Shown here piece after piece: positions 14,249 to 34,459 of a stretch of DNA of 64,000 nt. Each line of letters opens with the position of its first letter. The first letter of the stretch is position 1. The notes beneath the pieces are model-generated. The model was not told the DNA's origin and made no database searches. It saw only the letters and a program-made list of their open reading frames with translations. The position numbers were made by a program, and so were the translations under genes. The DNA is from Escherichia coli 042 (GTDB lineage Bacteria > Pseudomonadota > Gammaproteobacteria > Enterobacterales > Enterobacteriaceae). Where the stretch lies: NCBI RefSeq assembly GCF_000027125.1, contig NC_017626.1. One strand, 5' to 3'.

Positions 14249-14249
14249 A

Positions 14250-15644
14250 TCAATATGCCGCTTTGTTAACGAAGCCTTTGAATACCGTCAGGAAAACGAT
14301 TTTGATATCGAACCAGACGCTCCATTCGCGGATGTACTCAAGGTCGAACTCGACGCGTTTTTCCATTTTCTCCAGCGTGTCGGTTTCGCCGCGCCAGCCA
14401 TTAATCTGCGCCCAGCCGGTAATGCCCGGTTTCACTTTATGGCGCAGCATGTAGCCTTCAATGAGCTGGCGATACTGTTCGTTATGCGCCACCGCGTGCG
14501 GACGTGGACCCACAATCGACATCCCCCCGGTCAGCACATTGATAAACTGCGGCAGTTCATCCAGCGAGGTGCGGCGCAGAAAGTTCCCCACTTTGGTGAC
14601 GCGCGGATCGTTCTGCGTCGCCTGGGTCACCACTTTGTCGTTCTCCATCACTTTCATGGAACGGAACTTCCACACTTTGATCGGCTTGCCATCCATGCCG
14701 TAGCGAGTCTGGCGGAAAATAACCGGCCCAGGTGAGCTCAGTTTCACCGCCAGCGCAATGCAGCACAGCACCGGGGAGATCAGCAGCAGGATAAGCGTCG
14801 CCAGCACAATGTCTTCCGCACGTTTGAGCAGGCGGTTAACCCCGGAAAGCGGCGTGTCGTAAAGCGGCACCACCGGAACGCCGTTCATCTCTTCAAGACG
14901 TGAATGAAGAATGTTGAAGGTAAAAACATCGGGGATCAGCAGCACCGAACAGGTGGTGTCCGCCAGTTGATGGACCAGTTTTTTCACTCGCGCGCCGTCG
15001 CACATCTGCATCGCGATATAGACGTTATGAATCTTGCCCGCTTTTGCATCCTCTACCAGCTGTTGCAGATTGCCCGCCCAGTCGTTAGAAACGCCGCCCG
15101 GTTTTGGGTCGTGGTATACGCCCACCACTTCAAACCCTAACCACGGCTGATTACGGAAGCTCTCCATCAGCATTTGTCCGGCGGCTAAATCCCCCGCCAC
15201 CGCGACCATCCGCTTGTTATAGCCATGATTACGCAGCCAGCCCGCCCCAATGCGAATACATGAACGGCAAACCACCAGTCCGATGCTGGTCAGCCCATAC
15301 AACGCCAGCCAGATTTTCAGTTGCGTGTCGAAATCATTGTTGAACGCCACCAGTCCGGCGCTGAAAATCACGCTTAAGGTCCAGTTTTGTAGCAACAGAG
15401 CAAATTCTGTCGCTGCCCGAACACCGCGCCATGAGCGATAAAAATCGGTGATGCCGCCCAGCATCTGGAACACCACCAGCGTAATCAGCGCCACCAACAG
15501 GTGCATGTAGAGGAATGACAGTCCGCTGACTTCGCAAACCAGCCATAGTCCGGCAAACATGATGGTGATATCTGAAAAGCGTTGCACCATAGAGATTAAC
15601 GATGCATTGGTTTTCGCTCGCTCGCGCTTTTTTAGATTTGTCAT
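14250..15644 (-). CDS. wcaJ: undecaprenyl-phosphate glucose-1-phosphate transferase WcaJ
   Basis: 464 aa; C-terminal sugar-transferase domain (…DELPQF…GPRP…) with N-terminal membrane segments. Confidence 0.9.
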   Translation of the reverse strand: MTNLKKRERAKTNASLISMVQRFSDITIMFAGLWLVCEVSGLSFLYMHLLVALITLVVFQMLGGITDFYRSWRGVRAATEFALLLQNWTLSVIFSAGLVAFNNDFDTQLKIWLALYGLTSIGLVVCRSCIRIGAGWLRNHGYNKRMVAVAGDLAAGQMLMESFRNQPWLGFEVVGVYHDPKPGGVSNDWAGNLQQLVEDAKAGKIHNVYIAMQMCDGARVKKLVHQLADTTCSVLLIPDVFTFNILHSRLEEMNGVPVVPLYDTPLSGVNRLLKRAEDIVLATLILLLISPVLCCIALAVKLSSPGPVIFRQTRYGMDGKPIKVWKFRSMKVMENDKVVTQATQNDPRVTKVGNFLRRTSLDELPQFINVLTGGMSIVGPRPHAVAHNEQYRQLIEGYMLRHKVKPGITGWAQINGWRGETDTLEKMEKRVEFDLEYIREWSVWFDIKIVFLTVFKGFVNKAAY

Positions 15645-15698
15645 CGTTGTTCCTGTTATTAGCCCCTTACCCGCAGTGGGGTAAGGGAAGATCCGACA

Positions 15699-17069
15699 TT
15701 ACTCGTTCAGCAACGTCAGCAGAGTTCGCGTTCTCGCTTCCATCAGCGGCACATCACCGCGTGATTCCACATTCAACCGCACCACCGGTTCGGTGTTGGA
15801 GGAGCGCAGGTTAAAGCGCCAGTCGGCAAAGGTCATACTGATGCCATCGGTGCGATCCACCGCCAGCGCCTCGCGGCTAAAATGCTGTTCCACGCGATTA
15901 ATTGCCTCAACGGGTTGCGCCAGTTTGCTGTTGATCTCACCGCTTGCCGGAAACGCTGCCATCCGGTCGCGCACCAGTTCGCCCAGCGTTTTCCCTTTCA
16001 GGCACACCAGTTCGGCGACCAGCAGCCACGGGATCATGCCGCTGTCGCAGTAGGCAAAATCACGGAAGTAATGGTGGGCGCTCATTTCGCCACCGTAGAT
16101 GGCGTCTTCCTTGCGCATCCGTTCTTTAATAAAGGCGTGTCCGGTTTTCGACATTACCGGGGTGCCGCCTGCGGCCGTCACCACATCAACGGTGTTCCAG
16201 GAGAGACGCGGATCGTGGATGATCTTCGCGCCGGGATTTTTTTCGAGGAACGCTTCTGCCAGCAGGCCGACAATGTAGTAGCCCTCGATAAACTGCCCTT
16301 TTTCGTCAAACAGAAAACAGCGGTCAAAATCGCCATCAAAGGCAATGCCCATATCCGCGCCGTGTTTGATGACCGCATTGCGGGTGTCGTCGCGGCATTC
16401 CGGCAGCAATGGATTAGGAATACCGTTGGGGAAATTGCCGTCCGGCGTGTTGTGTACTTTGATGAATTCCACCGGTGCGCCGAGGGCGTTAAAGCGGGCT
16501 TCGATGGCGTCCACCACCGGACCCGCCGCGCCGTTCCCGGAGTTAATCACCAGCTTGAGCGGCGTGAGGTTTTTGACGTTGATATAACCGAACAGGTGAT
16601 CAACGTAAGCGTCACGCAGATTGATTTGCTGATAGCGACCGCGTTTGGTTTCATCGACAGGAGGGAAGTCATTGGCTTCTGCCAGGCGCTGGACGTCGCG
16701 CAGTCCGGTATCACCGCTGATCGGGCGAGCCCCTTCGCGCACCAGCTTCATGCCGTTGTAATCCATCGGGTTATGGCTGGCGGTAACTTCGATGCCGCCA
16801 TCCACGCCGAGATGGAACGTGGCGAAATAAATCTCTTCGGTGCCGGACATGCCAATATCCAGCACATCGACGCCCGCATCCTGTAAACCTTTCGCCAGCG
16901 CCAGTTTTAAGGTTTCGCTGGTGAGGCGGACATCACCGCCTAACACAATAGTTTTCGGTTTGAGAAATTCGCCATAGGCGCGACCAATGCGCCAGGCAAT
17001 ATTTTCATTCAGTTCTTCGCCTAATTTCCCGCGAATATCATAGGCTTTAAAGCAGGTTAATTTTTTCAT
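15699..17069 (-). CDS. cpsG: phosphomannomutase
   Basis: TASHNP active-site motif; start trimmed to [14 protein letters not shown] (ATG at 17069), giving 456 aa. Confidence 0.9.
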
Positions 17070-17170
17070 ATCGTTACCCTTTTTCAGGCAATAGTTGGCC
17101 CTGACCGAAACGGCCAATTTTGTTTTTGTCGTTATTTACCGGAGAATTAATCCGGTTGATTATTCAACTG

Positions 17171-18607
17171 CTACACCCGTCCGTAGCGATCCGCGAAGCG
17201 CACCACATCATCCTCTTCGAGGTAAGACCCGGAGCGCACTTCAATTAAATCGAGTGGAATTTTCCCCGGGTTTTCCAGGCAGTGCGTCGCCCCCAGCGGA
17301 ATATAAATCGACTCGTTTTCACCAAGCAGTTTGATATCACCGTCAATAGTGACTTTTGCCGTTCCTGCGACAACCACCCAGTGTTCCGCGCGGTGATGGT
17401 GCATCTGTACCGACAAACCCTCGCCCGGTTTCACGGTGATGCGTTTCACCTGGTAGCGGTCGCCCGCGTCGATAGAGTCATATTTGCCCCACGGGCGATA
17501 CACTTCGCGATGCACCCGATGCTCATGGCGACCGTCGGCTTTGATCTGCTCGACCACTTTTTTCACATCCTGCACCGCGTTACGGTCGGCAATCAGCACC
17601 GCATCTTTGGTCTGCACCACTACCAGATCTTTCACCCCGACGGTGGTGACCAGGCCAGATTCGGCGTACACATAGCTGTTTTCAGTTTTGTGATTAATCA
17701 CATCGCCGTGGCAAACGTTGCCCTCGGCGGTGTGGGCGCTGATCTCCCATAATGAAGACCAGGAACCGACATCGCTCCAGCCCGCATCCATCGGCACCAC
17801 AACGGCATCTGCCGTACGTTCCATGACCGCGTAATCCACAGACTCTTCCGGGCAGGCGAGAAACGCTTCTTCATCCACACGAATAAAATCGAGATCCGGA
17901 TCGACGGCGCTCATCGCTTTTTCACAGGCGTCGAGAATATCCGGGCGATATTTTTTCAGCTCTTCTAGATAGCGTCCGGCGCGGAACAGGAACATACCGC
18001 TGTTCCAGTAATATTCGCCGCTTGCCACATAGGCCTGAGCGGTTTCCAGATTCGGTTTTTCGACAAACTGCGCCACTTCAAAGGCCACCGTATCCTGCTC
18101 ACCCGCCGACACTTCACCGCGACGAATATAGCCATATCCGGTTTCAGGTAGATCCGGCACAATGCCGAAGGTCACCAGCTTGCCTGCTTCGGCATACGGC
18201 ATGGCGTTACGCACGGCGGCACGGAACGCGTCTTCGTCGGCAATCACATGATCCGCTGCCAGCACCAGCATTAATGGGTCGCTCTCCGGGCTATGACGTT
18301 TTGCCGCCAGCGCCGCCAGCGCAATGGCAGGTGCAGTGTTACGCCCTGCCGGTTCGAGAATAATGTTCTCGGTGAGTTTGTTCAGTTGACGCAGCTGTTC
18401 CGCGACAATAAAGCGGTGCTGCTCATTGCAAATCACCACCGGGCTTTCGCACTCCACGCCGTTCAGGCGGCAGATGGTGGTTTGCAGCATGGTGAGATCG
18501 CCTTTCAGGCATAAAAACTGCTTGGGGTAAAGTACGCGGGAAAGCGGCCATAAGCGGCTCCCGGAGCCACCTGCCATCACAACTGGATAGAGTTTCGACT
18601 GCGCCAT
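17171..18607 (-). CDS. cpsB: mannose-1-phosphate guanylyltransferase
   Basis: 478 aa; [14 protein letters not shown] nucleotidyltransferase motif. Confidence 0.9.
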
Positions 18608-18609
18608 AA

Positions 18610-19833
18610 TTATCCCCGAATATCATTTATAAATTGACGTAACACGTTCTCTTTATCGAGCGTGCGTTCGGCATATTCACGTGCCACCGTGTTGTGTTTG
18701 GGCAGCAGGAGCGCCTGACGAATCCCCGCCACCAGCGCCTCGACCGATTCCGGTTCAACGCAAACCGCAATGCCCGGAAAGGTTTCGCAAAGGTGTCCCA
18801 GTTCGGTGTGAGCTTCTGCGGTAATCACCGCGTTGCCGCCTACCGCCAGAATATTGGTCAGTTTCGACGGCAATACGGCATCCGCCGCGCCGCGTTTTTG
18901 CACCACCAGATGGCAATCGCCCATCTTCAGCAGTGCGGGTAAAGCGTCATACGATTGCAGCGGGAAGAATTGCATGTTGCGCAGTCCACGCTGTTGCGCC
19001 ATTTTTTCCAGTCGCGCTTTGCCGCCGCCCTGCCCGACAATGGCAAAAATCAGCGGTTCATCACGCAGGCGTTCGGCAGCTTCAATAACGTTTTCCAGCC
19101 CCTGCTTTTCACCAATATTGCCGGAGTAAAGAATGATTTTTTTGTTATCCGGCAGGCCAAGCTGGTTACGAAGGGCATCAACATCGGCCTCTGCGACATG
19201 CTGAAAACGGGTAATTTCTGACCAGTTGGGGAAGAAGATGACGTTTTCTGCCGCCACGCCTTTTTCGATGGCTTTATTCATCATCGAACGCGAAATCGTG
19301 GAGACGTTATCGACGTTATGCAGTCCGCTACGTTCGAACGCCGTTGCCAGCTGTGCCACTTTGCCGCCTTTGCCTTTTCCGGCAAGGCCCAGCCCCAGCA
19401 TGGCGTCCACTTCGTAATCCTGAATATGCAGCACGGTACGCGCGCCAGAGAGTTTCGCCAGCAGGCGCATTCCCGGCGTGCAAAACAGCGTTGGCACTAC
19501 GCCGATAATGCGATCCGGCTTCCAGCGACGTTGCGCCATCAACGGGAAAAAACTGCTGGCGGCAAAACTGCCGAGATGCAACAGGCGTTTCAGGGTGCTC
19601 GGCTGTTTTGGCACGTACAGCGGGCAGCGCCACACCGTGGCGGCCCCCTCTTCTCGTTTGTACCGCCAGGCGGAATAGTTCTCGCCCACCTGCCATTGCG
19701 GGTAGTAAGGCGGTGCGGTAATAACCCGCACCTCATGACCTTGTGCCGCCAGCCATTCCACCATCTCTCCGGTGTATTTGCCGATACCGGTTAACTCCGG
19801 CGAGTAGTTAATGCCGTAGACCAGTATTTTCAT
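18610..19833 (-). CDS. wcaI: colanic acid glycosyltransferase WcaI
   Basis: 407 aa GT4-like protein; conserved position. Confidence 0.88.
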
Positions 19834-20309
19834 AATCCGGGTACTCCGGCACGCTTCTCAGCGAGAAAATAGGCGCGGCTGTTAGCGTGAACATTGTCAC
19901 TGGCGAGCAGTGCATCCGGCGTCAGCCAGCGGTAATCGTCATGCTGCTCATCCGGCAGTAACAGCTCTTCTTCCGATACTCTGAAGCGAAAACCGAGCAC
20001 CACATAGTGAGTGGTGAAATCCGTGCCGGAGAAGTTATCGTCATAAAAGTGCTGCCAGACACCGTAAAACTGGCCTGCTGTTATCGGCAGACGCAGCCCC
20101 AGTTCCGCCATCGTCAGCCGCTCAAATGCGGCTTCCAGCGTTTCGTCTTTCTGCACGCGCCCTCCCGGCACAAACCAGTAACCCTGCGCCGGGCGGTTGG
20201 TTCTTTTGCCAAGCAGAAACTCGCCGCGACTGTTCTCGACAATAAAATCGAGAGAGACAAGCGGAGTGGAGCGCACTACCGTGGCAAAGTCTTCCTGACG
20301 TAAAAACAT
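19830..20309 (-). CDS. gmm: GDP-mannose mannosyl hydrolase (Nudix)
   Basis: Nudix-family protein; start taken at the second Met (MFLRQEDF...), 159 aa; 4-nt overlap with wcaI. Confidence 0.85.
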
Positions 20310-20311
20310 CA

Positions 20312-21277
20312 TTACCCCCGAAAGCGGTCTTGATTCTCAAGGAACCACTGGTAAGTGCTGGCAAGCCCCGCTTCCAGTGAGATTTCGTGATACCAGCCAA
20401 GCTGATGCAGGCGCGTCACATCCAGCAGTTTGCGCGGTGTGCCATCTGGTTTGCTGGCATCAAAAACCACCCGACCTTTGTAACCCACCACTTTGGCGAT
20501 GGTTTGCGCCAGCTCGCGGATAGTGCAGTCAACGCCCGTGCCGACGTTAATGTGCGACAGCATCGGCTGGGTGTTCTCCAGCCAGACTTCGTGCGCCAGC
20601 TCCATGACATGAATGCTCGCCGCCGCCATATCATCGACATGCAGAAATTCGCGCATCGGTGTACCGCTGCCCCACACCACCACGTCCGGCGCATTCTGTG
20701 CCGTCGCCTCGTGGAAGCGACGCAGCAATGCAGGGATCACATGCGAATTACTCGGGTGGAAGTTGTCGTGTGGCCCGTACAGGTTGGTCGGCATGACCGA
20801 GCGGTAATCGCGTCCGTACTGACGGTTGTAAGATTCGCACAGTTTGATCCCGGCGATTTTGGCAATGGCATAAGGCTCGTTGGTCGGCTCCAGCGTACCC
20901 TGCAACAACTCGCTTTCTGCCATCGGCTGTTTTGCCAGTTTCGGGTAGATACAGGACGATCCGAGAAACAGCAGTTTGTTCACGTCGTTCTGATGCGCGG
21001 CGTGAATGATGTTGCTCTCAATCATCATGTTCTGATAGATGAAATCCGCCGGATACGTGTTGTTGGCGACAATGCCGCCCACTTTCGCCGCCGCCAGATA
21101 GACCTGGTCAATGCTTTCGCTGGCAAAGAAATCATGCACCGCCCGGCTGTCCAGCAGGTTCAGCTCGTCGCGGGTGCGTAATACCAGTTCCACATCACCG
21201 CGCTGTTCGAGCTGCCGCCTGATGGCAGAACCGACCATCCCGCGATGGCCAGCGATAAAAATGCGTTGTCTACTCAT
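20312..21277 (-). CDS. fcl: GDP-L-fucose synthase
   Basis: 321 aa; N-terminal Rossmann motif [14 protein letters not shown] of the SDR family. Confidence 0.9.
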
Positions 21278-21279
21278 GC

Positions 21280-22401
21280 TTATGACTCCAGCGCGATCGC
21301 CACGTCGTAGCCGTGAGATTTCAGCAGAGAGTGTTTTTTCGCCGCTTCGAGGTCATTAGCCACCATTTCAGACACCATCTCTCTGAGGGTGATTTCCGGT
21401 TTCCAGCCCAGTTTTTCGTGCGCTTTGGTCGGGTCACCGAGCAGCGTTTCAACTTCTGCCGGACGGAAGTAACGCGGATCAACGGCGATAATCACATCAC
21501 CCGGTTTAACGCCCGGCGCGTCATGCCCGGTGACGGAAACCACAATGCCCTTCTCTTCAACACCCGTGCCTTCAAAGCGCAGTTTGATGCCCAGCTGTGC
21601 TGCCGCCATTTCCACGAACTGACGTACGGAGTACTGAACGCCGGTCGCGATAACGAAATCTTCCGGCTGTTCCTGTTGCAGCATCATCCACTGCATTTTT
21701 ACGTAGTCTTTGGCGTGGCCCCAGTCACGCAGGGAATCCATATTGCCGAGGTACAGGCACGACTCCAGCCCCTGGGCGATGTTGGCGATTGCGCGGGTGA
21801 TTTTGCGGGTAACGAAGGTTTCGCCGCGGCGCGGGGATTCATGGTTGAAGAGAATACCGTTACAGGCATACATGCCGTAGGATTCGCGGTAGTTAACGGT
21901 GATCCAGTAGGCATACAGTTTGGCGACCGCATACGGAGAGCGTGGATAGAACGGCGTGGTTTCTTTCTGCGGAATTTCCTGCACCAGACCATACAGTTCA
22001 GAGGTGGAAGCCTGATAGAAACGGGTTTTCTTTTCCAGACCGAGGAAGCGGATCGCCTCCAGCAGGCGCAGCGTACCCATCGCATCGACGTCTGCGGTAT
22101 ATTCCGGTGACTCAAAAGAAACCGCAACGTGGCTCATTGCGCCCAGGTTGTACACTTCATCCGGCTGCACTTCACGCAAAATGCGCGTCAGGTTGGAGGT
22201 ATCACTCAGGTCGCCATAATGCAGATGGAATTTCGGGTTGCAGGTGTGCGGATCCTGATAAATGTGATCCACGCGCTCGGTGTTGAATGACGATGCACGA
22301 CGCTTAATACCATGCACCTCGTAACCTTTTTCCAGCAGAAACTCTGCCAGGTAAGAACCGTCTTGTCCGGTTACACCGGTGATGAGAGCGACTTTTGACA
22401 T
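21280..22401 (-). CDS. gmd: GDP-mannose 4,6-dehydratase
   Basis: 373 aa; [19 protein letters not shown] Rossmann motif. Confidence 0.92.
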
Positions 22402-22427
22402 GTCTTATTCCTCTGTATTTTTTGAAT

Positions 22428-22976
22428 TTATTCAGTTTCAACGCGTTCGCGTATCACCACTGCGGGATTCCCCCGGCAAACCACATTTGCCGGAAGCGAT
22501 TTAAAAACACTGCTTCGCGCACCCACGACGGTGCCGTCGCCAATCGTGACGCCAGGCGCGACAAAGACATCGGTTGCCAGCCAGCATTTCTCGCCAATCA
22601 CAATAGGCGTGGCGTTAATGGTGAAATGTTGACTTGCATGGTCGTGGCTCCCGGTGCATAAATAACTTTTTTGCGATATCACCGAATGTGCGCCAATGGT
22701 TATTTCACCGAGGGTATATAAATTGACGTCATCGCCGACCCACGCGTAATCACCTAAGGTTAATTTCCACGGATAGGTAATTTTTACTGACGGACGAATA
22801 ACTACGTTTTTTCCTATTTTTGCGCCGAATAAACGTAATAAAAATGCCCGCCAGCGATACAATACTTGTGGCGACCAGGCAAATATTGTTGCCTGTACTG
22901 CCCACCACAATTGCACTTTAATAGCGTTGCCACCCCGGAACCCTTTCGGCACCGAGAATCCACTTAAATCCTGCAT
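22428..22976 (-). CDS. wcaF: colanic acid acetyltransferase WcaF (hexapeptide-repeat)
   Basis: 182 aa with left-handed beta-helix hexapeptide repeats. Confidence 0.88.
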   Translation of the reverse strand: MQDLSGFSVPKGFRGGNAIKVQLWWAVQATIFAWSPQVLYRWRAFLLRLFGAKIGKNVVIRPSVKITYPWKLTLGDYAWVGDDVNLYTLGEITIGAHSVISQKSYLCTGSHDHASQHFTINATPIVIGEKCWLATDVFVAPGVTIGDGTVVGARSSVFKSLPANVVCRGNPAVVIRERVETE

Positions 22977-22991
22977 CGTTTTCCCTTATAT

Positions 22992-23738
22992 TCAGCTTTT
23001 GTTATATAAGGCTTTCGTCTTTGAGGTAGTACGTTGGCGTAAATGCCAGGATAATTCTGCCCAGAAGCCAGGCACATGTAATATCTGCCGTTGGACTTTT
23101 TTGGCGTCAGCACATAATTCCATATTATTGGTGGTAGATACTCCACCCATAGAAAATTCAGACACCAGGCCATTGAGTTTTCTAAATGCATAACCAGCTT
23201 TATACATTTTGGCTGCCAGCGCGTAATCGGAAGAAACTTTATATTCCAGGTCATAACGCCATTTTTTCAAGCCGGATACCGGAAAAAATATCGCCTGATG
23301 ACTGGCGGGCAGGCTGTGATAAATATACCAGCCCGGTTTGGCGCTACGTTTAATTTTATGCCCGTCGCCAAAATCCAGCAGCGCATCGCCGGTGATCATC
23401 ACGTTATCTTTTTGCACTTTTAACTTACGGACAAAATTTGCGGCATCCTGATGAAAAATATCGCCTGAATTGAGAAACAGCGCGAACTTGCCTTGCGCCA
23501 TTTCAATACCTTTGTTCATGGCGTCGTAGATACCGTTATCTGGTTCGCTGACAAAGCGTAGGTTATAGATACCATTGAGATTTTCCAGATACTCACGGGT
23601 ACCGTCGTTGGAACCGCCATCGACAACAATCCATTCGAAGCTGATATCGTCCGCCTGCGCCAGATGCGCCAGAGAGGCGTGTGTTTTGACTATCCCTTCG
23701 AGGTTACGAAACGCGACAGTGATTATGCTAAGCAACAT
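22992..23738 (-). CDS. wcaE: colanic acid glycosyltransferase WcaE (GT2)
   Basis: 248 aa; GT2-like N-terminus (…[10 protein letters not shown]…). Confidence 0.88.
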
Positions 23739-23748
23739 GTTCTTATTC

Positions 23749-24966
23749 TTACCTCGTAATATTTAACGCTTTTCGCAAAATAAACGGACAGACGATTAAA
23801 AATGCATATTCCGGGCTAAATATCGAACCGGTAAAAAACAGCGATACCGGAGTAAAAAGATATAATTGCACGCGAAAATTGCGGTTATCACCAAAAGCGT
23901 TGATCATCATTTTTATCACTTTCCCCATGTACCACAGTGATAAAAACACCGCGAACCAGGAAAAATAAATAATCAGCAGATACAAACCATTGTCTATGGT
24001 TTTTCCGACATCCGCACCGTTAAATATTCCGAATGATGCGACATATTCATAAAGTGAGCCAAATCTGACTACACCGTCAATATGGGTCAAAGAATAACCG
24101 ACCATCACCAGCGGACCGACAATACGATAATATGATGACGATCCTTCCGTACCTAAATCGCCCAGACGGGTGGAAATATAAGGAAATGCAATTACCACAC
24201 CAACCAGGAATACAGCCAGAGAAATCAATGCTAACGGTAACTTTTTCTTAATCGCCTCTTTATTCAGATATTGAAATGCCCACTCCAGCAAATAAAACAG
24301 GATAAAGGTCATAACCCCTGAAAACGATCCGGATAATATTATCCCTGCGAGAATCATAGCATCGGTTTTAGGCGTTTTGATACCAAACTGTTTGATGCTG
24401 AGCCAAATTGAGATTAATGCCAGAGCGAAAAATGCCGGTTCGAAATAAAGTGCTGTCGTGCGCTTGCCGCCGAATTTAATGAAATTCAGCACATAGCTGT
24501 TGCTGTAAATCAGATATTTCGAAATCGACTCCATAATACTGCTGCCACCGGTGAGGATAATTTGCGCCATCTCCACCGCCGCCAGCGCCACCACCAGCCC
24601 GACCACCAGATAAAAGAAACGTAATATCTTGCGATGGTTGTGTGGCGAAATTGTTTTAAAGCGAATACTCCACACCATGCCAATAATGATCACAATATAG
24701 ACAAACAGCATGGTTGAAGTGACGTATTTACTGGCATCCAACGACTGACCAAACAGGTAGTTAAACGCCGTGAGTCCCGCACCAATCCCTAAGGCAATCA
24801 TCAATTTTTTAACGCTGATGCGCTCTAAAAACAGCAGTAACAAGACAGGTAAAAAAGTGACGATGGTGATGGGAAAACTTTCGCCAAGCTGGGCGATTTT
24901 GACGTTAACCAACAGGTAAATCAGCGGCAGCAGCAGGTAGCTACAGATTCTGATAGAAGTTGACAT
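23749..24966 (-). CDS. wcaD: colanic acid polymerase WcaD
   Basis: Polytopic membrane protein; start trimmed to [15 protein letters not shown] (ATG at 24966), 405 aa; overlaps the wcaC 3' end by 26 nt. Confidence 0.85.
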
Positions 24967-26158
24967 ACTCCTCCAGCATCTGTTGTCCACTGTAGGCGGC
25001 GCGGCTGCGCTGGCTGAACTCATCCAGCGTGGTACTAAATATCGCCTGCGCGATTTCCGGTTTGCTTAACTGCACCAGTTGCAGCACGTCTTCTTCACTG
25101 ACGGTTTTACCGCCGGATTTTTGCAGCACTTCCCGCGCCGCGTCGCTATGGGTGGCAATCACCGGCACGCCAATCGATAGCGCCTCACACAAAATTAGCG
25201 GGTAGTTATCGACGCGAGAACTGAATACCAGCGCATCCATCTGATTGAGCGCGCTCATCAACTTGCGCTTGTCAGTTTCAAAGCCGTGATTAACCACGTT
25301 GCCAGCGGTGAACGGCGAGAACTTACCAAAGGTATGCAGTTCGATTTTGTCGCCCAGCGCCATCATCTCGCGTACCAGTTGCTGGTTAGTTTTGCCGTCG
25401 TAACGCAGGTCATGCGCTACCACCGCGATTTTCGGCTTGCCCTGAGTTTCGCGCACCGGAGGCAAGTCCGCCAGAATCGCTTCGGTTGCCATATCAATGC
25501 CATTATTGATAATCCGGCAACGCCCTGGACCGTACAGACTATTGAAAGCATCAGCCACATGCTGGCTGGGGGAAATAAACTGACAGCCCAGCGCCAGCAT
25601 CTCACGGAATAACTGGCGTTTGCCCGCCACCAGCTGGTGTGCGCGATCAATCTTCACCGGCGGATAATTATTTAAGGTCGGGCATTTCTGGCAGCCCGTT
25701 TTCCAGCCTTCGCAACCGTCGGTAAAGGCGCAGCGTCCGGTAACGCTCCAGTGATCGTGCAGCGTCCAGACCAGAGTGACATCCGGTTTGTGGTTTTTCA
25801 CCTTTTCGCAAAAGCGCACCACGCTCTTAAGATTTAGCCAGTAGCTGTGCAGCACATGAAAATGCAGAACCACCGGGCCCGGTGTGCAAGTAATGGTGCG
25901 ATATAACTCATTGAAATTGCCAAACAGATCGCGATTAAACAGACGAAACAGGGCAATGTTCGCCATCGCGGTCATCTGCGGCGTATGTTTGATGACCTGC
26001 GGATAGTTTTGATGGCTGACGCTCTCTTTGCCGCCTTTGCCGTAGCCGTAGACAAAATGTGACGCCAGCCCCTGTTGCAGCGCACGCTGGTGGAGATCTA
26101 ACGCCACACCTGCCGCCCCGCCTTCCGCCAATCGCACATTAAATTGCAGAATATTCAT
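24941..26158 (-). CDS. wcaC: colanic acid glycosyltransferase WcaC
   Basis: 405 aa GT4-like protein. Confidence 0.88.
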   Translation of the reverse strand: MNILQFNVRLAEGGAAGVALDLHQRALQQGLASHFVYGYGKGGKESVSHQNYPQVIKHTPQMTAMANIALFRLFNRDLFGNFNELYRTITCTPGPVVLHFHVLHSYWLNLKSVVRFCEKVKNHKPDVTLVWTLHDHWSVTGRCAFTDGCEGWKTGCQKCPTLNNYPPVKIDRAHQLVAGKRQLFREMLALGCQFISPSQHVADAFNSLYGPGRCRIINNGIDMATEAILADLPPVRETQGKPKIAVVAHDLRYDGKTNQQLVREMMALGDKIELHTFGKFSPFTAGNVVNHGFETDKRKLMSALNQMDALVFSSRVDNYPLILCEALSIGVPVIATHSDAAREVLQKSGGKTVSEEDVLQLVQLSKPEIAQAIFSTTLDEFSQRSRAAYSGQQMLEEYVNFYQNL

Positions 26159-26643
26159 TTAATTACCTTCACTCGCGCTTTTTCTCCCACCACCAGCGCG
26201 TTGTCCGGGACAGAGTCGAGCACCACGCTGCCCGCGCCCACGGTGACGTTGTTACCAAGCGTGATATCACCAAGAATAATGACGTTGGCACCGAGCTCGA
26301 CGCCGTTGCCAATGTGTGGACATGCCATGTTATCGGCACCACGATTGCCGATAGTGACGCCGTGGCGAATGGTGAAATCATCCCCCGCTACCACGTTTTT
26401 ATTGATCACTACGGCGTAACCGTGATGGATAGTGAAACGGCGACCAATGGTTGCGGCTGCCTGGATTTCATAACCGAAAAAGCCTTCGGTGATAATGCGA
26501 TACAGCACCAACAGCGGGGCCGCCCAAAGATTGTTGAGGACGTTCTTTTTGCGCCACACCGAACAAAAATGAGCGGCGCGATAGGCAAGAACCATGCAGC
26601 ACGGGCGTAAACTCCAGCTGTTGGCGCGCAGATCTTCCAGCAT
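26155..26643 (-). CDS. wcaB: colanic acid acetyltransferase WcaB
   Basis: 162 aa hexapeptide-repeat acyltransferase. Confidence 0.88.
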   Translation of the reverse strand: MLEDLRANSWSLRPCCMVLAYRAAHFCSVWRKKNVLNNLWAAPLLVLYRIITEGFFGYEIQAAATIGRRFTIHHGYAVVINKNVVAGDDFTIRHGVTIGNRGADNMACPHIGNGVELGANVIILGDITLGNNVTVGAGSVVLDSVPDNALVVGEKARVKVIK

Positions 26644-26645
26644 CT

Positions 26646-27485
26646 TTAGCGCCCCCGAATACCATCAGCCAGACGTTTGCCGTTACGCACCGACAGCAGC
26701 GTCAACAACGTGCGCCAGGTCATACGTTTATTGCGGATCTGGTAGAGGGTAAACAGCTGATATTTTTTACTGGCACGGTCGAATTTATCTTTGTGCTTGC
26801 GGTAAAAGTGGAAGTATCCGGAGAATTTTTTTGGTGACGAGGTGATCTGCATTTCGCCGTGATTGATATGCAGGATCTGCGTCGCCTCTTCTACTTTCCA
26901 CGGTTCGCCATACTCCACCACCATCCGCAGGAAAATGTCGTAATCCTGTGCCGCTTTCAGTTCGGTATCGAACAAACACTCTTTGAAACGCCACGCCCAG
27001 GTAAAGACCTGATTGCCAATGATATTGCGTTTGTAGAACAGGCGGCGTGAATACGGCGATTTGGGATACAGTGGTAAGCTTGCCGGTTGGGAATAAACTT
27101 CTCCCTGGCATACGTAGTCGTTAGCGTACAAAAAGGCGTGAGTGACCAGTTGCTGTTTATGGGCGAGGAAGACGCTCAGGCGGTTGGGTGTCCATTCATC
27201 ATCATCATCGATTCCGGTGATATATTCCCCTTGCGCCAGCATAATCGCCTGGTTACGTACCGCGCACGCCCCGTTGTTAATGTCGTTGTGAATGTAGGTG
27301 ATACGCGGGTCGTTGAGGGCGGTGACGTACTGTTGCAGCTGTTCCCAGGAGGTGGAGCAATCATCCACGATGATCATCTCCCAGTTACTGTAGTCCTGGC
27401 GCAGGACCGATTTTATCGCCCGAATCGCCAGTTGTTGGCGGTTCCAGGTCGGCATATAGATTGAAATCAGCGGATTGTCTTTCAT
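26646..27485 (-). CDS. wcaA: colanic acid glycosyltransferase WcaA (GT2)
   Basis: 279 aa; GT2 N-terminus ISIYMPTWNRQQ...VDDCS. Confidence 0.88.
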   Translation of the reverse strand: MKDNPLISIYMPTWNRQQLAIRAIKSVLRQDYSNWEMIIVDDCSTSWEQLQQYVTALNDPRITYIHNDINNGACAVRNQAIMLAQGEYITGIDDDDEWTPNRLSVFLAHKQQLVTHAFLYANDYVCQGEVYSQPASLPLYPKSPYSRRLFYKRNIIGNQVFTWAWRFKECLFDTELKAAQDYDIFLRMVVEYGEPWKVEEATQILHINHGEMQITSSPKKFSGYFHFYRKHKDKFDRASKKYQLFTLYQIRNKRMTWRTLLTLLSVRNGKRLADGIRGR

Positions 27486-27549
27486 AGGTTGTTCTCCCGG
27501 AGTGTCGAGATGTTCTGCCGGTTTATAAGCTTGTTTACGGGTTCTGTTG

Positions 27550-27612
27550 CCGGATGCGGCGTGAACGGAGGTCGGATAAGATGCGTCAGCATCGCATCCG
27601 ACAGCGGATCTC
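27550..27612. repeat. REP-like palindromic unit between wcaA and wzc
   Basis: CCGGATGCGGCG...GCATCGCATCCGAC inverted-repeat structure typical of REP. Confidence 0.5.
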
Positions 27613-27613
27613 G

Positions 27614-29776
27614 TTATTTCGCATCCGACTTATATTCGTATTCGTAATAGCCATAATCCTGATACGCGCTGGCGCGGCGGAAGATGGAGTTCAGAATCAC
27701 CCCTTTCACCGGAATACCGTTTTGCTCAAAGCGGCTCAGACTGGTTTCCACTTCTTTCAATGTGTTGACCGCATAACGCGCCACCATTAACGTGGTTCCA
27801 ACATGACGACCAACAATTGCCGCATCGGTCACTGCCAGAATCGGCGGCGTATCAATCAACACCAGGTCGTAGTTTTTACTCGCCCAGTTCACCAGTTCGG
27901 CAAAGCGTTCGCTCATCAACAGTTCAGAAGGATTTGGCGGCACCTGACCGCGCGGGATCAGGTCAAATTTGGCAATAGAGGTCGGTTTAGCAGCGGTAGT
28001 AATATCGCCCTGACCAATCAGAATTTCCGACAGACCATTAACGTTATTAGTGCCCAACAGCTCGTGGGTGTAGCCTTTGCGCATATCGCAGTCGATCAAC
28101 AACACCCGTTTATTGGTCTGGCTGATCACCGCCGCCAGGTTGGCGCAGACAAAGGTTTTACCGATTGACGGGCTAACCCCGGTCATCATCAACACATTGT
28201 TCTGTGCCTGCATCATCGCGAAGTGCAGACTGGTACGCAGACTACGGATGGCTTCAATCGCCAGATCGGTTGGATTCCCCACCGCCAGTAGCTGGCTCTG
28301 TTTATAGCGTTTAACCCCTTTGATGGTTTTGACGCTATCGCGCGCTTTCTGCCACTCCGACAGCGGGATGCTGGCATAGACGCTGATGCCATGTTCTTCC
28401 AGCACCTGCGGGCTTTCAATGCCGCGATTGAACAAAGAGCGCAGCAGCACACCCACGATAGAGAGCATCAGGCCGAAGATAATCGCCCCGAGGATAATCA
28501 GCCCTTTCTTCGGTTTCAGCACACCAGGCTGGGTGATTGCCGGGTCAACAATGCGCACATCGCCGACGGTGCTGGCTTCGGTGATTTTCAGCTCCTGTTC
28601 TTTATTCAGCAGTTGCATATAGACCTGCTGCCCAGACTCGACATCGCGGGTCAGACGGACAATTTCCTGCTGGGTTTTCGGCATCGCCGTTACGCGACCG
28701 TTAAGTTTGGCTTTTTCGTCTTCCAGCGCCTGCCGTTTCTCCAGCAGCGTGCGATACGCCGGGTGAACTTTGGTGTACAGCTTGGAGATTTCCGCTTCTT
28801 TAAAGGTCAGTTCGTTCAACTGCGCGTCGATGTTCACCATCGAATCGAGCACCGCTTTCGCTTCCAGCGGCAGATCAACAGAATCTTTATCCTGACGGAA
28901 GGCATTCAGTTTGTTTTCGGCAACATCGAGGCGGCTACGTACTTCCGGTAACTGTTGCGCGAGGAAAGCGAGGCTTTTCGACGCTTCCGCCGATTTGCGC
29001 TCAATATTTTGTTCCTGATAGTTACGAGCGATGCTGTTAAGAATGTCGCGGATCTGTTCACGATCTTCACCGGTATAAGTCAGGCTCAGGACGCCTGCGT
29101 CTTTGCCGTTCTCCGTTACCGTCAGGCTGTTTTGCAGTTGATTGATCATCCCCAGCGTGGAGTATTTGGTGACGGTAAACTCACTGCCCGGGCGGGCGTG
29201 AATAGCTTCAACCATCAGCGTGACGCCTTCTTTTTTCAGCATCTGGCCCGCTTGCCCACGGGCGCTAAAGCCGCCATCGCTGCTCAGAGTGTAGTTTTTA
29301 TCGTCCAGCACATTAAGCGTAAACACCTGATCCGCCATCTCTTTCGGGCGGTTAAAGGTGGTCACTTTTACCGTCTCGTTCTGGCGTCCCATCAGGCGAT
29401 CCCAGCCCGCACCGAAAATCGGGAACGTGTTTTTGCTCACTGCAATATCGAGGTCGAGATCGTCCACCGTTTTACCAAGCACCAGACGCGAACGAATCAA
29501 CTGGATCTCGGCGTCCGATGCAGGCGGTTTGTTGGCTAATGCAGAGCCAATATCCTGCACCAGCGAATTGCCGCTGCTTTGTTCGATTTGTACCAGTGCG
29601 TCGGCGCTGTATATCGGCGTGGCGAAGAAGGTGTAAACCACGGCACAGAGGGCGAATACGGCGGTGATGCCAATTACCCACCAGCGCGCTTCAATGACGG
29701 TGCCGACCAGGCGACCAATATCGATTTCATCACTGCCCGTTACCGGAGCGGCATGTTGTTTTACTTTTTCTGTCAT
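27614..29776 (-). CDS. wzc: tyrosine autokinase / polysaccharide co-polymerase Wzc
   Basis: Start trimmed to MTEKVKQHAAPVTG (ATG at 29776), 720 aa; Walker A-like GVSPSIGKT and a C-terminal tyrosine-rich tail YQDYGYYEYEYKSD. Confidence 0.9.
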   Translation of the reverse strand: MTEKVKQHAAPVTGSDEIDIGRLVGTVIEARWWVIGITAVFALCAVVYTFFATPIYSADALVQIEQSSGNSLVQDIGSALANKPPASDAEIQLIRSRLVLGKTVDDLDLDIAVSKNTFPIFGAGWDRLMGRQNETVKVTTFNRPKEMADQVFTLNVLDDKNYTLSSDGGFSARGQAGQMLKKEGVTLMVEAIHARPGSEFTVTKYSTLGMINQLQNSLTVTENGKDAGVLSLTYTGEDREQIRDILNSIARNYQEQNIERKSAEASKSLAFLAQQLPEVRSRLDVAENKLNAFRQDKDSVDLPLEAKAVLDSMVNIDAQLNELTFKEAEISKLYTKVHPAYRTLLEKRQALEDEKAKLNGRVTAMPKTQQEIVRLTRDVESGQQVYMQLLNKEQELKITEASTVGDVRIVDPAITQPGVLKPKKGLIILGAIIFGLMLSIVGVLLRSLFNRGIESPQVLEEHGISVYASIPLSEWQKARDSVKTIKGVKRYKQSQLLAVGNPTDLAIEAIRSLRTSLHFAMMQAQNNVLMMTGVSPSIGKTFVCANLAAVISQTNKRVLLIDCDMRKGYTHELLGTNNVNGLSEILIGQGDITTAAKPTSIAKFDLIPRGQVPPNPSELLMSERFAELVNWASKNYDLVLIDTPPILAVTDAAIVGRHVGTTLMVARYAVNTLKEVETSLSRFEQNGIPVKGVILNSIFRRASAYQDYGYYEYEYKSDAK

Positions 29777-29778
29777 TC

Positions 29779-30222
29779 TTATACCTGCTCTGCGTTCAAT
29801 GCCTGCGCCCACTGGCGGGCAGACCGTTCAAGTAATGTGTACACCGCTGCAAACGTTTCCCGGCTTTTGCGATATGGATCGGGGATTTCACATTCGTTAT
29901 CCCAGTGACCAAACAGCATCACTTTGCCGCGCATCTCAGGTGCCATCTCGCATAAGCGTTCGATATGGCGCTTTTCCATGGTCAAAATCAGGTCGTAGTT
30001 GCGACACAGGCTGCGGCTGATTTGACGGGCACAGTGACCTTCCAGAGACAGTTGATGTTCTGCGGCGACGCTGATAGCGGTAGGATCAGCGCCCTTACCG
30101 ACCAGCGCGCCGAGTCCAGCGGACTCCACTTTCAGCTCCGGGTGATAACGTTGCAGTAAGCGTTCCGCCGTCGGGGAACGGCAAATATTGCCGACACAGA
30201 CAACTAATATGTTGTTAAACAT
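29779..30222 (-). CDS. wzb: low-molecular-weight protein-tyrosine phosphatase Wzb
   Basis: 147 aa; N-terminal CVGNICRSP P-loop. Confidence 0.92.
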   Translation of the reverse strand: MFNNILVVCVGNICRSPTAERLLQRYHPELKVESAGLGALVGKGADPTAISVAAEHQLSLEGHCARQISRSLCRNYDLILTMEKRHIERLCEMAPEMRGKVMLFGHWDNECEIPDPYRKSRETFAAVYTLLERSARQWAQALNAEQV

Positions 30223-30227
30223 GACGA

Positions 30228-31367
30228 TTACCAGTTATGAATGTCGCTGGCTGTATCCGTCATGTAACGGACACCGCTAATAGTTGGCAGCAACTGATTG
30301 ATCAGACGGTTCCAGCGGGAAACCGGTGCGGTGGTGACATACACCACGTCATAAGGTTGCAGGCGGAATTCTGTCGCCATCACCAGCGACGTCGCATCGG
30401 ACATATCCAGCTGATAGATATTGGCAATCTTGCCGTTACGCCCGCCCTCGCCTTTCAGCGGACGAATGACAAAGATGCCGCTGGCGTTGGAGGTGGTCAT
30501 GTCGATGCCTTCAGCATTGCCCAGGGCTTCAGTCAGGGTCATACCGCTAAAGTCCATTTTCAGGGTGCTCTGTTTCTTCACTTCACCCATCACAAACACT
30601 TTCAGATCATCATTACGCGGCACGTAGAGAATATCGCCAGGATAAAGCAGTCGGTTCTGATTGAGGTCGCCGTTTTGCATCAGCGCCTGCAAAGAAATGC
30701 GTTCTTCACGACCATTGTGTGTTAGCACCACGTTGCGCCAGTCAGCGGTGTCGGTCAGGCCACCTGCGGCGTTGATGGCGTCGAGAATGGTCAGTGGTAC
30801 GTTGGTGATCGCCTGTTGACCGGATTTATTCACCTGACCGGAGATATACGCTTTTTGCGAGCGGAAGGCGGCGATATTAACGTCCACCTGCGGGTCAGCG
30901 ATGTACGTCGCTAAGCGCCCGGTAATATCACTGCGGATTTCAGCGAGCGTTTTCCCCACCACGTGAACTTTGCCGATATACGGGTAGAACATGGTGCCGT
31001 CAGGCTGTACCCAGTTGCCGGTGTCGCTGGAGCTGCGGTACTGACCGGCTGGCGTGGTGAGCTCCGGGTGATCCCAGACGGTGACATTAAGAACGTCCCC
31101 CGGCCCGACGCGATACTGGTAATTCGCGATCTCACTTTCCAGCGTCATATTGGGGCGCGCTACGTTGGGTCGTGGACGTAATTGGTCAATCAGGCGCGGG
31201 GTCAACGGATAAACATTCACCATTTTGTCGAGATCGAAATCAGCGTCCTGCTGTTTGATGACGTCTTTGCCCATCGTCGACATATTGCTGCCCGGAAGTA
31301 CTGTGCAACCGCTTATCAAGGTTACTGACACCAATAATGGCATCAATTTCATTTTGGATTTCATCAT
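30228..31367 (-). CDS. wza: outer-membrane polysaccharide export lipoprotein Wza
   Basis: 379 aa; lipoprotein signal ending ...LISGCT. Confidence 0.9.
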
Positions 31368-31545
31368 TGTTTATTTATCACTTTGGCAGAGTAATTATCC
31401 TGTGCACTATTAATAGCAATGTCGCCATGCACATTTACCTTGCAGTTAATTGAATAAAAATTTAACTGGCATCAGTCCTAAAAAAATTGATTTCATCCGC
31501 AGGCTATTGACAGAATAATTCAGACTGGTCTTTCAGGCATCCAGA

Positions 31546-31584
31546 CACGCTACCGCCCCTGGCTTTTTAGCTACCAATACACTG
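31546..31584 (-). promoter_or_regulatory. JUMPstart element with ops (GGCGGTAGCGTG) in the wza leader
   Basis: Minus-strand sequence CAGTGTATTGGTAGCTAAAAAGCCAGGGGCGGTAGCGTG; shares the ...AGCCAGGGGCGGTAGCGTG core with the element at 7230-7268. Confidence 0.85.
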
Positions 31585-31769
31585 ATTTAGCTTAATTTTT
31601 AAAACCCTCTCAACATACAGTCGTTGATGAGAAAGGGTTATTGCGGAAATTAACTTCCGAATATAAGGTGACATTATGGTAATTGAATATTGGCTCTCCA
31701 ATAATGCAGGAGGAAGTGTTACAGCTAACGGAATAGCAGGCAAGGTAACAATTCGGCAATTGGCTATTT

Positions 31770-31785
31770 TTAAGAATTATATTAA
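31770..31785 (-). promoter_or_regulatory. candidate RcsAB-box-like site upstream of wza
   Basis: TAAGAATTATATTAAG partly resembles the RcsAB box consensus TaAGaatatTCctA; the match is weak and the position is not verified. Confidence 0.25.
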
Positions 31786-32025
31786 GTGTCATTCAATATG
31801 GTTTTTAGGAGTTTCTTTAGGTTGACAATATTTAATATAGTGTCTCCACATGCGATATTTCTTAAATAATGTTTTATTATTACCACTTTTAATTCAGGGA
31901 TAATGTGAGGTTATAAACCTCAAATAATATGAGATAAATAGTGCTGCAACATTGCATTTTTGCCCCGATTTATCCATGATCGAATTGTGACATTTGTCAT
32001 ACAACGAATAGGTTTTGTACTTACT

Positions 32026-33609
32026 ATGGAATGGATTGCCGATCCGTCTATCTGGGCCGGGTTAATCACGCTGATTGTGATCGAACTGGTCCTCGGCATT
32101 GATAACCTGGTCTTTATTGCCATCCTCGCCGAAAAACTACCGCCGAAGCAGCGCGACCGCGCACGGGTTACCGGGCTGCTGCTGGCGATGTTAATGCGCC
32201 TGTTACTGCTGGCGTCAATCTCCTGGCTGGTCACCCTGACTCAACCGCTGTTCAGCTTCCGCTCGTTTACCTTTAGCGCCCGCGACTTAATCATGCTGTT
32301 TGGTGGTTTCTTCCTGTTGTTCAAAGCCACGATGGAGCTTAACGAACGGCTGGAAGGGAAAGACAGCAATAACCCCACGCAACGCAAAGGTGCGAAGTTC
32401 TGGGGGGTGGTGACACAAATTGTGGTACTGGACGCCATCTTCTCACTCGACTCAGTGATTACCGCCGTCGGGATGGTCGACCATTTACTGGTCATGATGG
32501 CCGCCGTGGTTATCGCTATCAGCCTGATGTTGATGGCCAGCAAGCCGTTAACCCAGTTCGTTAACAGTCACCCGACCATCGTTATTCTCTGCTTAAGCTT
32601 CCTGTTGATGATTGGCTTTAGCCTGGTGGCGGAAGGTTTCGGCTTCGTCATTCCGAAAGGCTACCTGTACGCTGCCATTGGTTTCTCGGTGATGATCGAG
32701 GCGCTCAATCAGTTGGCTATCTTTAACCGGCGACGTTTTCTTTCCGCTAACCAGACGCTGCGCCAGCGGACTACCGAAGCGGTAATGCGCCTGCTTAGCG
32801 GGCAAAAAGAAGATGCGGAACTGGACGCCGAAACCGCGTCCATGCTGGTGGATCATGGTAACCAGCAGATCTTTAATCCGCAGGAACGGCGGATGATTGA
32901 GCGGGTACTTAATCTTAACCAGCGTACTGTCAGCAGCATTATGACGTCGCGCCACGATATTGAGCATATCGATCTCAACGCGCCGGAAGAAGAAATCCGC
33001 CAGTTGCTGGAGCGAAATCAGCATACGCGGCTGGTGGTTACTGATGGCGATGACGCAGAAGATTTGCTCGGTGTTGTTCACGTTATCGACCTGCTACAAC
33101 AGTCTCTGCGCGGCGAACCGCTCAACCTGCGGGTGTTGATTCGCCAGCCGCTGGTGTTCCCGGAAACCTTGCCGTTGTTACCTGCCCTGGAGCAGTTCCG
33201 TAATGCTCGCACACACTTTGCTTTTGTGGTGGATGAGTTTGGTTCAGTGGAAGGGATTGTGACATTAAGTGACGTCACTGAAACCATTGCCGGTAACTTA
33301 CCGAACGAAGTGGAAGAGATCGACGCCCGCCATGATATTCAGAAGAATGCGGACGGTTCCTGGACGGCGAATGGTCATATGCCACTGGAAGATCTGGTGC
33401 AATATGTGCCGCTACCGCTGGATGAGAAACGCGAATATCACACCATTGCCGGGCTGCTGATGGAATATTTGCAGCGTATTCCAAAACCTGGCGAAGAAGT
33501 TCAGGTGGGGGATTATTTGCTTAAAACGTTGCAGGTGGAAAGCCATCGCGTGCAGAAGGTGCAGATTATACCGCTGCGTAAGGATGGCGAGATGGAGTAC
33601 GAGGTGTGA
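32026..33609 (+). CDS. yegH: inner-membrane TerC-family protein with CBS/CorC domains (UPF0053)
   Basis: Start trimmed to [13 protein letters not shown] (ATG at 32026), 527 aa; N-terminal membrane domain followed by a soluble C-terminal region. Confidence 0.85.
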
Positions 33610-33946
33610 TGGTATCGGCCATTTTACCCAATGCTGCGTAACGCCTTATAACTTCAGCAATGAAGCGATGTCTGTGGTACATGGACATCACAGCGGGGGT
33701 GTGGGTCCGGCTGTAAATCGCCGAATCGTTTCCTGTAGGCCGGGGCAGCCCACATGGATGTGGGCTGAGGGCGCGTTTTACAGGGATGTTACCTCGCGCC
33801 CGTACCCGATAGCCGAAAGGAATAAGATGAGGGAACCGCGCCAGCGGCGATTTACCGCCGGGAGCCCGGGTTGCCAGGGTGGTGGCGATTGAGCCACCCT
33901 GGCACGTTCACCGGCTTGAGCGTTCCATAGTAGCGAGGAACATCAA

Positions 33947-34168
33947 GTGAACGGAACAGCCTTCGATCTTACATATTCAGAATATAATGGTGCCGCCGCT
34001 CGCGATGCTGATGGGATCTATCGCGTCATGTATGTCGCAAAATTTGAAGAAGCGGTTTACGTATTGCATTGTTTTCAAAAGAAAACACAGACTACCAGTC
34101 AATCGGATATTGATTTAGCCAAACGACGCTATAAAGAACTTGTTCAGGAGCGGAAAAATGAAAATTGA
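33947..34168 (+). CDS. RelE/HigB-2 (Gp49-like) family toxin, apparently N-terminally truncated (possible remnant)
   Basis: C-terminal core ...GIYRVMYVAKFEEAVYVLHCFQKKTQTTSQSDIDLAKRRYKEL carries the LHxFxKKTQ signature. The frame is closed by an in-frame TGA at 33917-33919 and the first start is GTG at 33947, leaving only 73 aa. Confidence 0.5.
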   Translation: MNGTAFDLTYSEYNGAAARDADGIYRVMYVAKFEEAVYVLHCFQKKTQTTSQSDIDLAKRRYKELVQERKNEN

Positions 34169-34448
34169 AACCTTTGATAGTGTGTGGGATGCGGTGAGTG
34201 ACACCCCTGAACAAGCGGAAAATATGCGGATCCGTGCCGAACTTGTTACGATCATTAATAACTGGATTGAACAACAAGGGTTTAGCCAGGCTCAGGCAGC
34301 GTCTGCTTTAGGGGTCACTCAACCTCGCATATCTGAACTTGCCAGAGGTAAGATCCAGATCTTTAGTATCGATAAATTGATCACCATGATGGCTCATGCA
34401 GGATTGCATATTCAACGTATTGAAGTTCAATATCCACATGCTGCTTAG
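34158..34448 (+). CDS. HigA-2-like XRE-family helix-turn-helix antitoxin
   Basis: MKIETFDSVWDAVSDTPEQAENMRIRAEL...GFSQAQAASALGVTQPRISELARGKIQIFSIDKL fits the small HTH antitoxin pattern; AGGAG Shine-Dalgarno at 34146-34150; ATG at 34158 overlaps the toxin ORF 3' end. Confidence 0.7.
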   Translation: MKIETFDSVWDAVSDTPEQAENMRIRAELVTIINNWIEQQGFSQAQAASALGVTQPRISELARGKIQIFSIDKLITMMAHAGLHIQRIEVQYPHAA

Positions 34449-34459
34449 TACTATAAATA

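Follow-up and report, generated by a model that had tools for sequence, protein, structure and literature searches.

Does the 26-nt overlap between wcaC and wcaD, two neighboring genes of the colanic acid operon of Escherichia coli 042, represent sequence that is read in two frames, or does it result from a start codon called at the wrong place? Start calls are less reliable than any other element of gene annotation, and mis-called starts are known to show up as long overlaps. We examined the junction within a 64,000-nt stretch of E. coli 042 DNA (hereafter the window), whose minus strand carries the colanic acid (wca/cps) operon with the wza-to-wcaM gene order and the gene sizes found in annotated K-12. 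In the list of open reading frames (ORFs), wcaC (24941..26158, minus) runs from ATG to TAG and encodes a colanic acid GT4 glycosyltransferase of 405 amino acids, and wcaD (23749..24966, minus) runs from ATG to TAA and encodes a Wzy-type colanic acid polymerase, likewise of 405 amino acids. As in K-12, wcaD lies between wcaC and wcaE in the wza-wzb-wzc-wcaA...wcaM cluster.

An initial annotation of the window, made from the sequence alone, had named the two genes, placed the WcaD start at MSTSIRIC (24966), and described an overlap of 26 nt in different frames. Both the sequence and the ORF list agree with this description to the base. The dual-coding stretch occupies 24941..24966 on the minus strand. 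There, the wcaC frame reads ...CAG ATG CTG GAG GAG TAT GTC AAC TTC TAT CAG AAT CTG TAG, in which the overlap itself specifies Y-V-N-F-Y-Q-N-L-stop, and the wcaD frame reads ATG TCA ACT TCT ATC AGA ATC TGT AGC (MSTSIRICS), in which it specifies M-S-T-S-I-R-I-C and enters the following serine codon. The wcaD ATG (24964..24966, minus) sits 23 nt upstream of the wcaC TAG (24941..24943, minus). Long phase 1 overlaps have been defined as pairs on the same strand in which the downstream start precedes the upstream stop and the shared length is 3n+2 and at least 6 nt (PMC3887535). With both genes on the minus strand and 26 mod 3 equal to 2, wcaC/wcaD has this geometry, and it is an ordinary member of the known class of long, co-directional phase 1 overlaps whose Shine-Dalgarno (SD) sequence is embedded in the upstream gene.

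The initial annotation also held that this overlap exceeds the 1- and 4-nt overlaps found elsewhere in the operon, and a table of the junctions among the 20 operon genes bears this out. Overlaps of 4 nt occur at wcaB/wcaC, gmm/wcaI and wcaK/wcaL, and an overlap of 1 nt occurs at fcl/gmm only when gmm is started at ATG 20312 and not at the RefSeq-type ATG 20309. All remaining junctions are gaps of 1–275 nt, and the 26 nt shared by wcaC and wcaD form the largest overlap of the operon. The fcl/gmm junction (20309-20314, minus) reads TAATGATG; its first ATG (20312) yields a Gmm of 160 amino acids with the 1-nt overlap, and RefSeq Gmm uses the second ATG, which gives 159 amino acids and a 2-nt gap.

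The wcaC/wcaD overlap is already known, in that it is present in the reference E. coli annotation. RefSeq carries the identical overlap in K-12 (locus L001; wcaC 8343-9560, wcaD 9535-10752), and the same start and overlap are recorded for strains 99-3165, ECA64, 16F5M1D1, OkiPb01697 and 4FM. This agreement among RefSeq records is not independent, as they come from one pipeline with shared protein models. The K-12 pair has the same genes, start and 26-nt overlap and shows no difference at the junction; the window strain departs from it only at more distant synonymous sites and in some intergenic spacers. Across seven compared E. coli strains, 63 nt around the junction are identical, and all polymorphisms in the seven-strain alignment fall outside an interval of about −30 to +32 relative to the ATG. 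The junction was found in 4736 of 5426 complete E. coli genomes, 3171 of which are at least 99% identical to it over 76 nt. A literature search judged by titles and abstracts found no paper on the wcaC/wcaD junction. Under standard laboratory growth, colanic acid genes are only weakly expressed, and routine proteomics would hardly capture the WcaD N-terminus, whose tryptic peptide (M)STSIR is too short and is followed by one that is too hydrophobic. Full-text searching for wcaD together with ribosome profiling returned no relevant paper on an experimental WcaD start, and the supplements of PMC4909307 (tetracycline profiling) and PMC5576327 contain no wcaD/b2056 entry.

To place the junction in a wider context, it was collected from 80 species-level genomes of roughly 25 Enterobacteriaceae genera, giving 81 sequences with the window. 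Every one of the 80 species loci keeps the ATG, the 26-nt overlap, the TAG and, directly upstream, the block CAGATGCTGGAGGA; the ATG and the TAG are thus each present in 81 of 81 sequences. Because all 80 species loci overlap by exactly this length, chance in a single sequence does not explain the overlap. In the WcaD frame, the first and second codon positions are conserved and the third is free from codon 9 onward, a pattern that continues through codons 10–55. Codon 9 is the first WcaD codon whose third base falls outside the overlap. Since the coding pattern in the WcaD frame begins there, initiation of WcaD must lie at or before codon 9. Among in-frame starts at that codon or upstream of it, only ATG 24966 is conserved in every sequence. 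Residues M1, S2, S4, I5 and C8 of WcaD are invariant across genera. Judged by this alignment, no start other than ATG 24966 fits every lineage.

As the initial annotation had pointed out, the overlap hinges on the true WcaD start, and WcaD initiation at a downstream codon would speak against it. RefSeq has the start at 24966, the comparative analysis supports it, and the comparison argues against displaced starts in either direction. If translation began downstream, at Met56 (ATG 24799..24801, minus), at the codon-19 TTG (24912) or elsewhere, there would be no overlap and the annotated N-terminus would be an artifact. In favor of such a start, Met56 is a start codon in 72 of 81 sequences, and the annotated ATG has a short spacer to its SD sequence. 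However, codons 9-55 retain their residues and vary synonymously in the WcaD frame, the homologs include the N-terminal helix, and the N-terminal residues listed above do not vary among genera. Between WcaD codons 2 and 55 there is no conserved in-frame ATG, GTG or TTG, the next widely kept start being Met56 itself; at codon 19, a TTG or GTG is found in only 23 of 81 sequences, and K-12 has CTG. Distant full-length WcaD homologs (20–46% identity, HMMER) start no more than about six residues away from Met1. Their sequences include the first hydrophobic helix and, after it, a conserved G-x-[FY]-P-[ILV]-T motif (WcaD residues 28-34), and both elements are also covered by the NCBIfam model TIGR04010. 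We consequently regard downstream initiation as very improbable.

Initiation upstream of 24966 would lengthen the overlap, and we rate it just as poorly. The ORF in the window is indeed open to 25023, such that the longest wcaD ORF (23749..25023) has 424 codons compared with 405 from the MSTSIRIC start, and a GTG is present at −24 (24990) in 50 of 81 sequences. The ATG at 25021..25023 (minus), which would produce the 424-residue protein and an 83-nt overlap, is matched by a start codon at −57 in only 6 of 81 sequences, and the GTG by one in only those 50; neither candidate is preceded by an SD sequence. In-frame stops interrupt the frame upstream of the ATG in several genera, at −60 in six sequences and at −42 in another (L067), which has no start in between, and one further sequence (L081) has no in-frame start whatsoever upstream of the wcaD ATG. 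Moreover, the 'residues' that the WcaD frame would specify before the ATG are unconserved and follow the wcaC codon pattern, and the WcaD homologs found in many genera are 405-407 amino acids long.

Protein models are in keeping with the annotated ends of both genes. WcaC matches the NCBIfam equivalog TIGR04015 over residues 1-405 of 405 with 894 bits (cut-off 785) and carries Pfam GT4/GT1 domains. Other GT4 models (BshA, TuaC and stp2) align as far as WcaC residue 404, and because these unrelated models reach that residue, the WcaC tail belongs to the fold and is no spurious addition. WcaD matches the equivalog TIGR04010 with 873 bits (cut-off 590), residues 1-404 aligning to profile positions 1-404 of 404. 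Membership in TIGR04010 and position in the cluster identify WcaD as the probable polymerase of the colanic acid repeat units. The combined data suggest that both frames of the overlap are really translated and that neither the start nor the stop has been mis-called. We conclude that this is very likely an ancient, real overlap and that WcaD is translated from ATG 24966..24964 with the use of an embedded GGAGG.

That GGAGG (24970..24974, minus) lies within the Leu-Glu-Glu codons of WcaC and is separated from the wcaD ATG by a 3-nt spacer. It is invariant in all 81 sequences, and its predicted duplex with the anti-SD sequence (−9.3 kcal/mol) is the third strongest among the 20 operon genes. A spacer of 3 nt is below the usual optimum for E. 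coli. The short-spaced SD sequence may therefore be a weak initiator, or it may work independently of any coupling to wcaC translation. The GGAGG is contained in the invariant block CAGATGCTGGAGGA (24969..24982, minus; −16 to −3 relative to the ATG), in which the synonymous sites of wcaC are frozen. Third-position entropy is 0 among the 81 sequences for the wcaC codons CAG, CTG and GAG just before the wcaD ATG. For comparison, zero entropy among codons for invariant residues is seen at 0 of 55 in the 460 nt upstream and at 6 of 91 downstream in wcaD. Frozen sites of this kind mark a nucleotide-level element within wcaC, and this fits an embedded SD sequence.

Within the overlap proper, only 7 of 26 positions vary among the 81 sequences. 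On the WcaD side, these substitutions are either synonymous or conservative (residue 6, Arg/Lys; residue 7, Ile/Val/Leu), and they fall mainly at two WcaC residues that tolerate replacement (Ser/Asn/Ala/Gly and Asn/Ser/Gly/Thr). In the wcaC frame, the shared stretch encodes the final portion of the last GT4 helix; in the other frame, it encodes the short, positively charged N-terminal tail of WcaD that precedes transmembrane helix 1. The 26 nt are presumably almost frozen because both proteins need this stretch. At 24958-24963 (minus), E. coli has TCA ACT (Ser-Thr in WcaD; Asn in WcaC), whereas nearly all other genera have TCT CGT (Ser-Arg in WcaD; Ser in WcaC).

An RNA hairpin is predicted at 24943..24983 (minus; −17 to +23), with the SD sequence in its 5′ arm (ACAGAU·CUGGAGGAGU) and the AUG in its loop. 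Its 3′ arm lies within the overlap, and the last base of this arm is the U of the wcaC UAG. The structure has a predicted free energy of −16.7 kcal/mol in the window (z = −3.6) and of −11.4 to −15.2 kcal/mol in five other genera (z from −0.65 to −3.0, the weakest value belonging to L027). The E. coli TCA ACT sequence adds two base pairs, giving −16.7 compared with about −12.4 kcal/mol. An RNAalifold consensus from 35 sequences includes the hairpin, and 98.9% of cells are paired versus 35–44% when the partners are slid. The four variable pairs show one-sided, compatible changes (U-A/U-G and G-U/A-U). No compensatory changes were seen, a result with little power given that 9 of 15 pairs never vary. 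At the Rfam 15 gathering score, eight matches occur in the window and none is near 24941-24983. On this evidence, a function of the predicted hairpin seems less likely than not, although far from remote.

The arrangement of start and stop suggests how expression of the two genes could be linked. Stop and start in one operon lie within a few tens of nucleotides (23 nt), as is expected of coupled genes, and since 23 nt is less than one ribosome footprint, a ribosome terminating on wcaC adjoins the wcaD start. A ribosome that finishes wcaC at the UAG would have just unwound the predicted SD-containing hairpin. It might then slide back by about 23 nt and re-initiate at wcaD, or it might leave the SD sequence and AUG open for a fresh 30S subunit. 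In either case, the amount of polymerase would be tied to that of the preceding glycosyltransferase. We infer that translation of wcaD is coupled to that of wcaC, a reading to which we lean only slightly. A more elaborate version of coupling, which we put forward as speculative and on balance improbable, is that the hairpin (24983..24943) is a conserved switch hiding the wcaD SD sequence, and that the length of the overlap has been selected so that the terminating ribosome opens the stem, thereby fixing a low WcaD:WcaC ratio and the polymerase dosage. The 3′ arm of such a switch would be composed solely of immutable, dual-coding sequence and would stop right at the wcaC stop codon.

Coupling has to be weighed against the view that genome compaction produced the overlap as a neutral side effect. 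The overlap would then be real, but wcaD would be initiated independently at its strong SD sequence and the hairpin would have no function. Phase 1 overlaps of such length can come from neutral turnover of starts and stops (PMC3887535), and 26 nt is within the normal range, as more than 80% of overlapping pairs share less than 30 bp (PMC12548453). The wcaD SD sequence is also strong enough for de novo initiation, and no covariation supports the hairpin, which some lineages have only in a weak form or not at all. Conversely, synonymous sites are frozen in 80 species beyond the SD core, at the G of CAG (−14) and the C of CTG (−10), and the predicted stem ends exactly at the wcaC stop codon. In addition, with a stop-to-start distance shorter than one ribosome footprint, the two events would probably not be kinetically independent. 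We therefore consider the neutral explanation a serious contender, albeit one with a less than even chance of being correct.

A different use of the overlap, as a programmed frameshift site that yields a WcaC-WcaD fusion protein, is extremely improbable. Fusion ORFs of this kind do exist in public records, for example P0018 (742 amino acids), which has GT4 and WcaD domains. Nonetheless, TATGTCAACTTCTATCAGAATCTGTAG contains no slippery heptamer (X XXY YYZ) or homopolymer run. At prfB-type +1 frameshift sites, the SD sequence is roughly 3 nt from the stop, whereas the internal SD sequence here is 23 nt from it. The separate ATG and SD sequence are invariant in 81 sequences, and P0018 is explained by a 16-nt deletion that takes out both. 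The junction of this protein, whose record is named E. coli WcaD, reads ...YSGQQM|RSIRICSY..., equivalent to such a deletion, and it loses the wcaD SD sequence, the ATG and the first two codons as well as the last 12 WcaC codons. The deletion could have arisen by mutation or could reflect a faulty assembly. A similar fusion, of WcaD with WcaE, is found in P0112 (602 amino acids).

The coupled arrangement that we slightly favor for wcaC/wcaD can be compared with established systems. In the coat-lysis gene pairs of the RNA phages fr (−38 nt) and MS2 (−50 nt), the downstream start also lies inside the upstream ORF (PMC12548453). The fr pair works by re-initiation after back-scanning, and the MS2 pair conforms to an unfolding model in which termination opens a hairpin at the downstream ribosome-binding site (PMC12548453). 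Coupling is experimentally proven for both phages, whereas for wcaC/wcaD it is deduced; moreover, wcaC and wcaD share fewer nucleotides, and wcaD differs from the phage lysis genes in having a strong SD sequence. The ATGA and TAATG overlaps of termination-reinitiation pairs (PMC6728339, PMC10666635, PMC12548453) likewise involve co-directional operon neighbors of one pathway, with the stop near the start and the SD sequence within the upstream coding sequence. In contrast to these pairs, wcaC/wcaD is in phase 1 and not phase 2, its start precedes the stop by 23 nt, and eight codons of each protein are dual-coded. A ribosome re-initiating at wcaD would need to move backwards.

An AT-rich distant relative (L083, GCA_022258985.1) encodes proteins with 46% identity to WcaD and 47% identity to WcaC, in a cluster of the same order (wcaC-like, wcaD-like, GT2, acetyltransferase, gmd, fcl, NUDIX, GT4). 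Its wcaC-like and wcaD-like genes share 14 nt, with the phase seen in E. coli, and its WcaC homolog ends at the homologous residue. Its called ATG is four codons further downstream, and the position of the E. coli ATG is occupied by ATA. Because this pair also overlaps in the same phase, the tail-to-head overlap of wcaC and wcaD appears to be ancient. The stem of similar topology at the junction of this relative falls short of significance (−4.6 kcal/mol, z = −0.37).

What is added here to the annotated overlap is comparative support for the WcaD start and a candidate coupling hairpin. If, as the comparison indicates, the 26-nt overlap is not a start-calling error, the N-terminus of WcaD in databases can be trusted. 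There are also practical consequences for the deletion or recoding of wcaC, in which at least the last ~45 nt (24941..24983) should be kept, as otherwise the start and ribosome-binding site of wcaD would be lost. By coordinates, a deletion that leaves only the last 21 nt of wcaC removes the wcaD ATG. The same caution applies to colanic acid overproduction strains, clean knockouts and CRISPRi. Should the coupling hairpin prove true, it would represent a further case of stoichiometry control in a polysaccharide operon, a modest addition to a well-described phenomenon.

Several other features of the window were recorded during the analysis. Two JUMPstart RNA elements (RF01707; 57 and 59 bits) are located at 31546-31584 (minus) and 7230-7268 (minus), one preceding wza and the other the O-antigen cluster, which is the expected placement for polysaccharide operons that depend on RfaH. 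An algC RNA motif (RF02929, 78 bits) occupies 17074-17123 (minus) in the cpsB-cpsG spacer, directly upstream of cpsG; this spacer is 101 nt long in the window versus about 192 nt in ECA64. The largest gap of the operon, the 275-nt wzxC-wcaK spacer, contains an naRNA4/REP-type element (RF02564) at 12614-12684 (plus). The wzc-wcaA spacer (27486-27613) measures 128 nt, compared with 92 nt in K-12, and 27501-27610 have no blastn alignment to K-12.

The window also differs along its length in its relationship to other strains. Positions 1-8600, which hold galF and O-antigen genes of the O17/O44/O73/O77/O106 family, are 100% identical to ECA64, O17_K12a and similar strains. ECA64 has only 97.7% identity to 17172-33610, and in the kilobase spanning wcaC and wcaD, no complete E. 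coli genome exceeds 98.4% identity. This mosaic (1-17139 versus 17172-33610) is consistent with recombination around the O-antigen locus. In the yegH–asmA region (about 33600-34500), about 33998-34501 lack an alignment to K-12; the ECA64 counterpart of this region carries an annotated pair of a RelE/ParE toxin and an HTH antitoxin with an 11-nt overlap. At 47958-48763 (plus), three Sib antitoxin RNAs (RF00113) are arranged in tandem opposite ibs toxin genes, of which ECA64 has four annotated copies, and the small RNA CyaR is found at 62112-62197 (plus).
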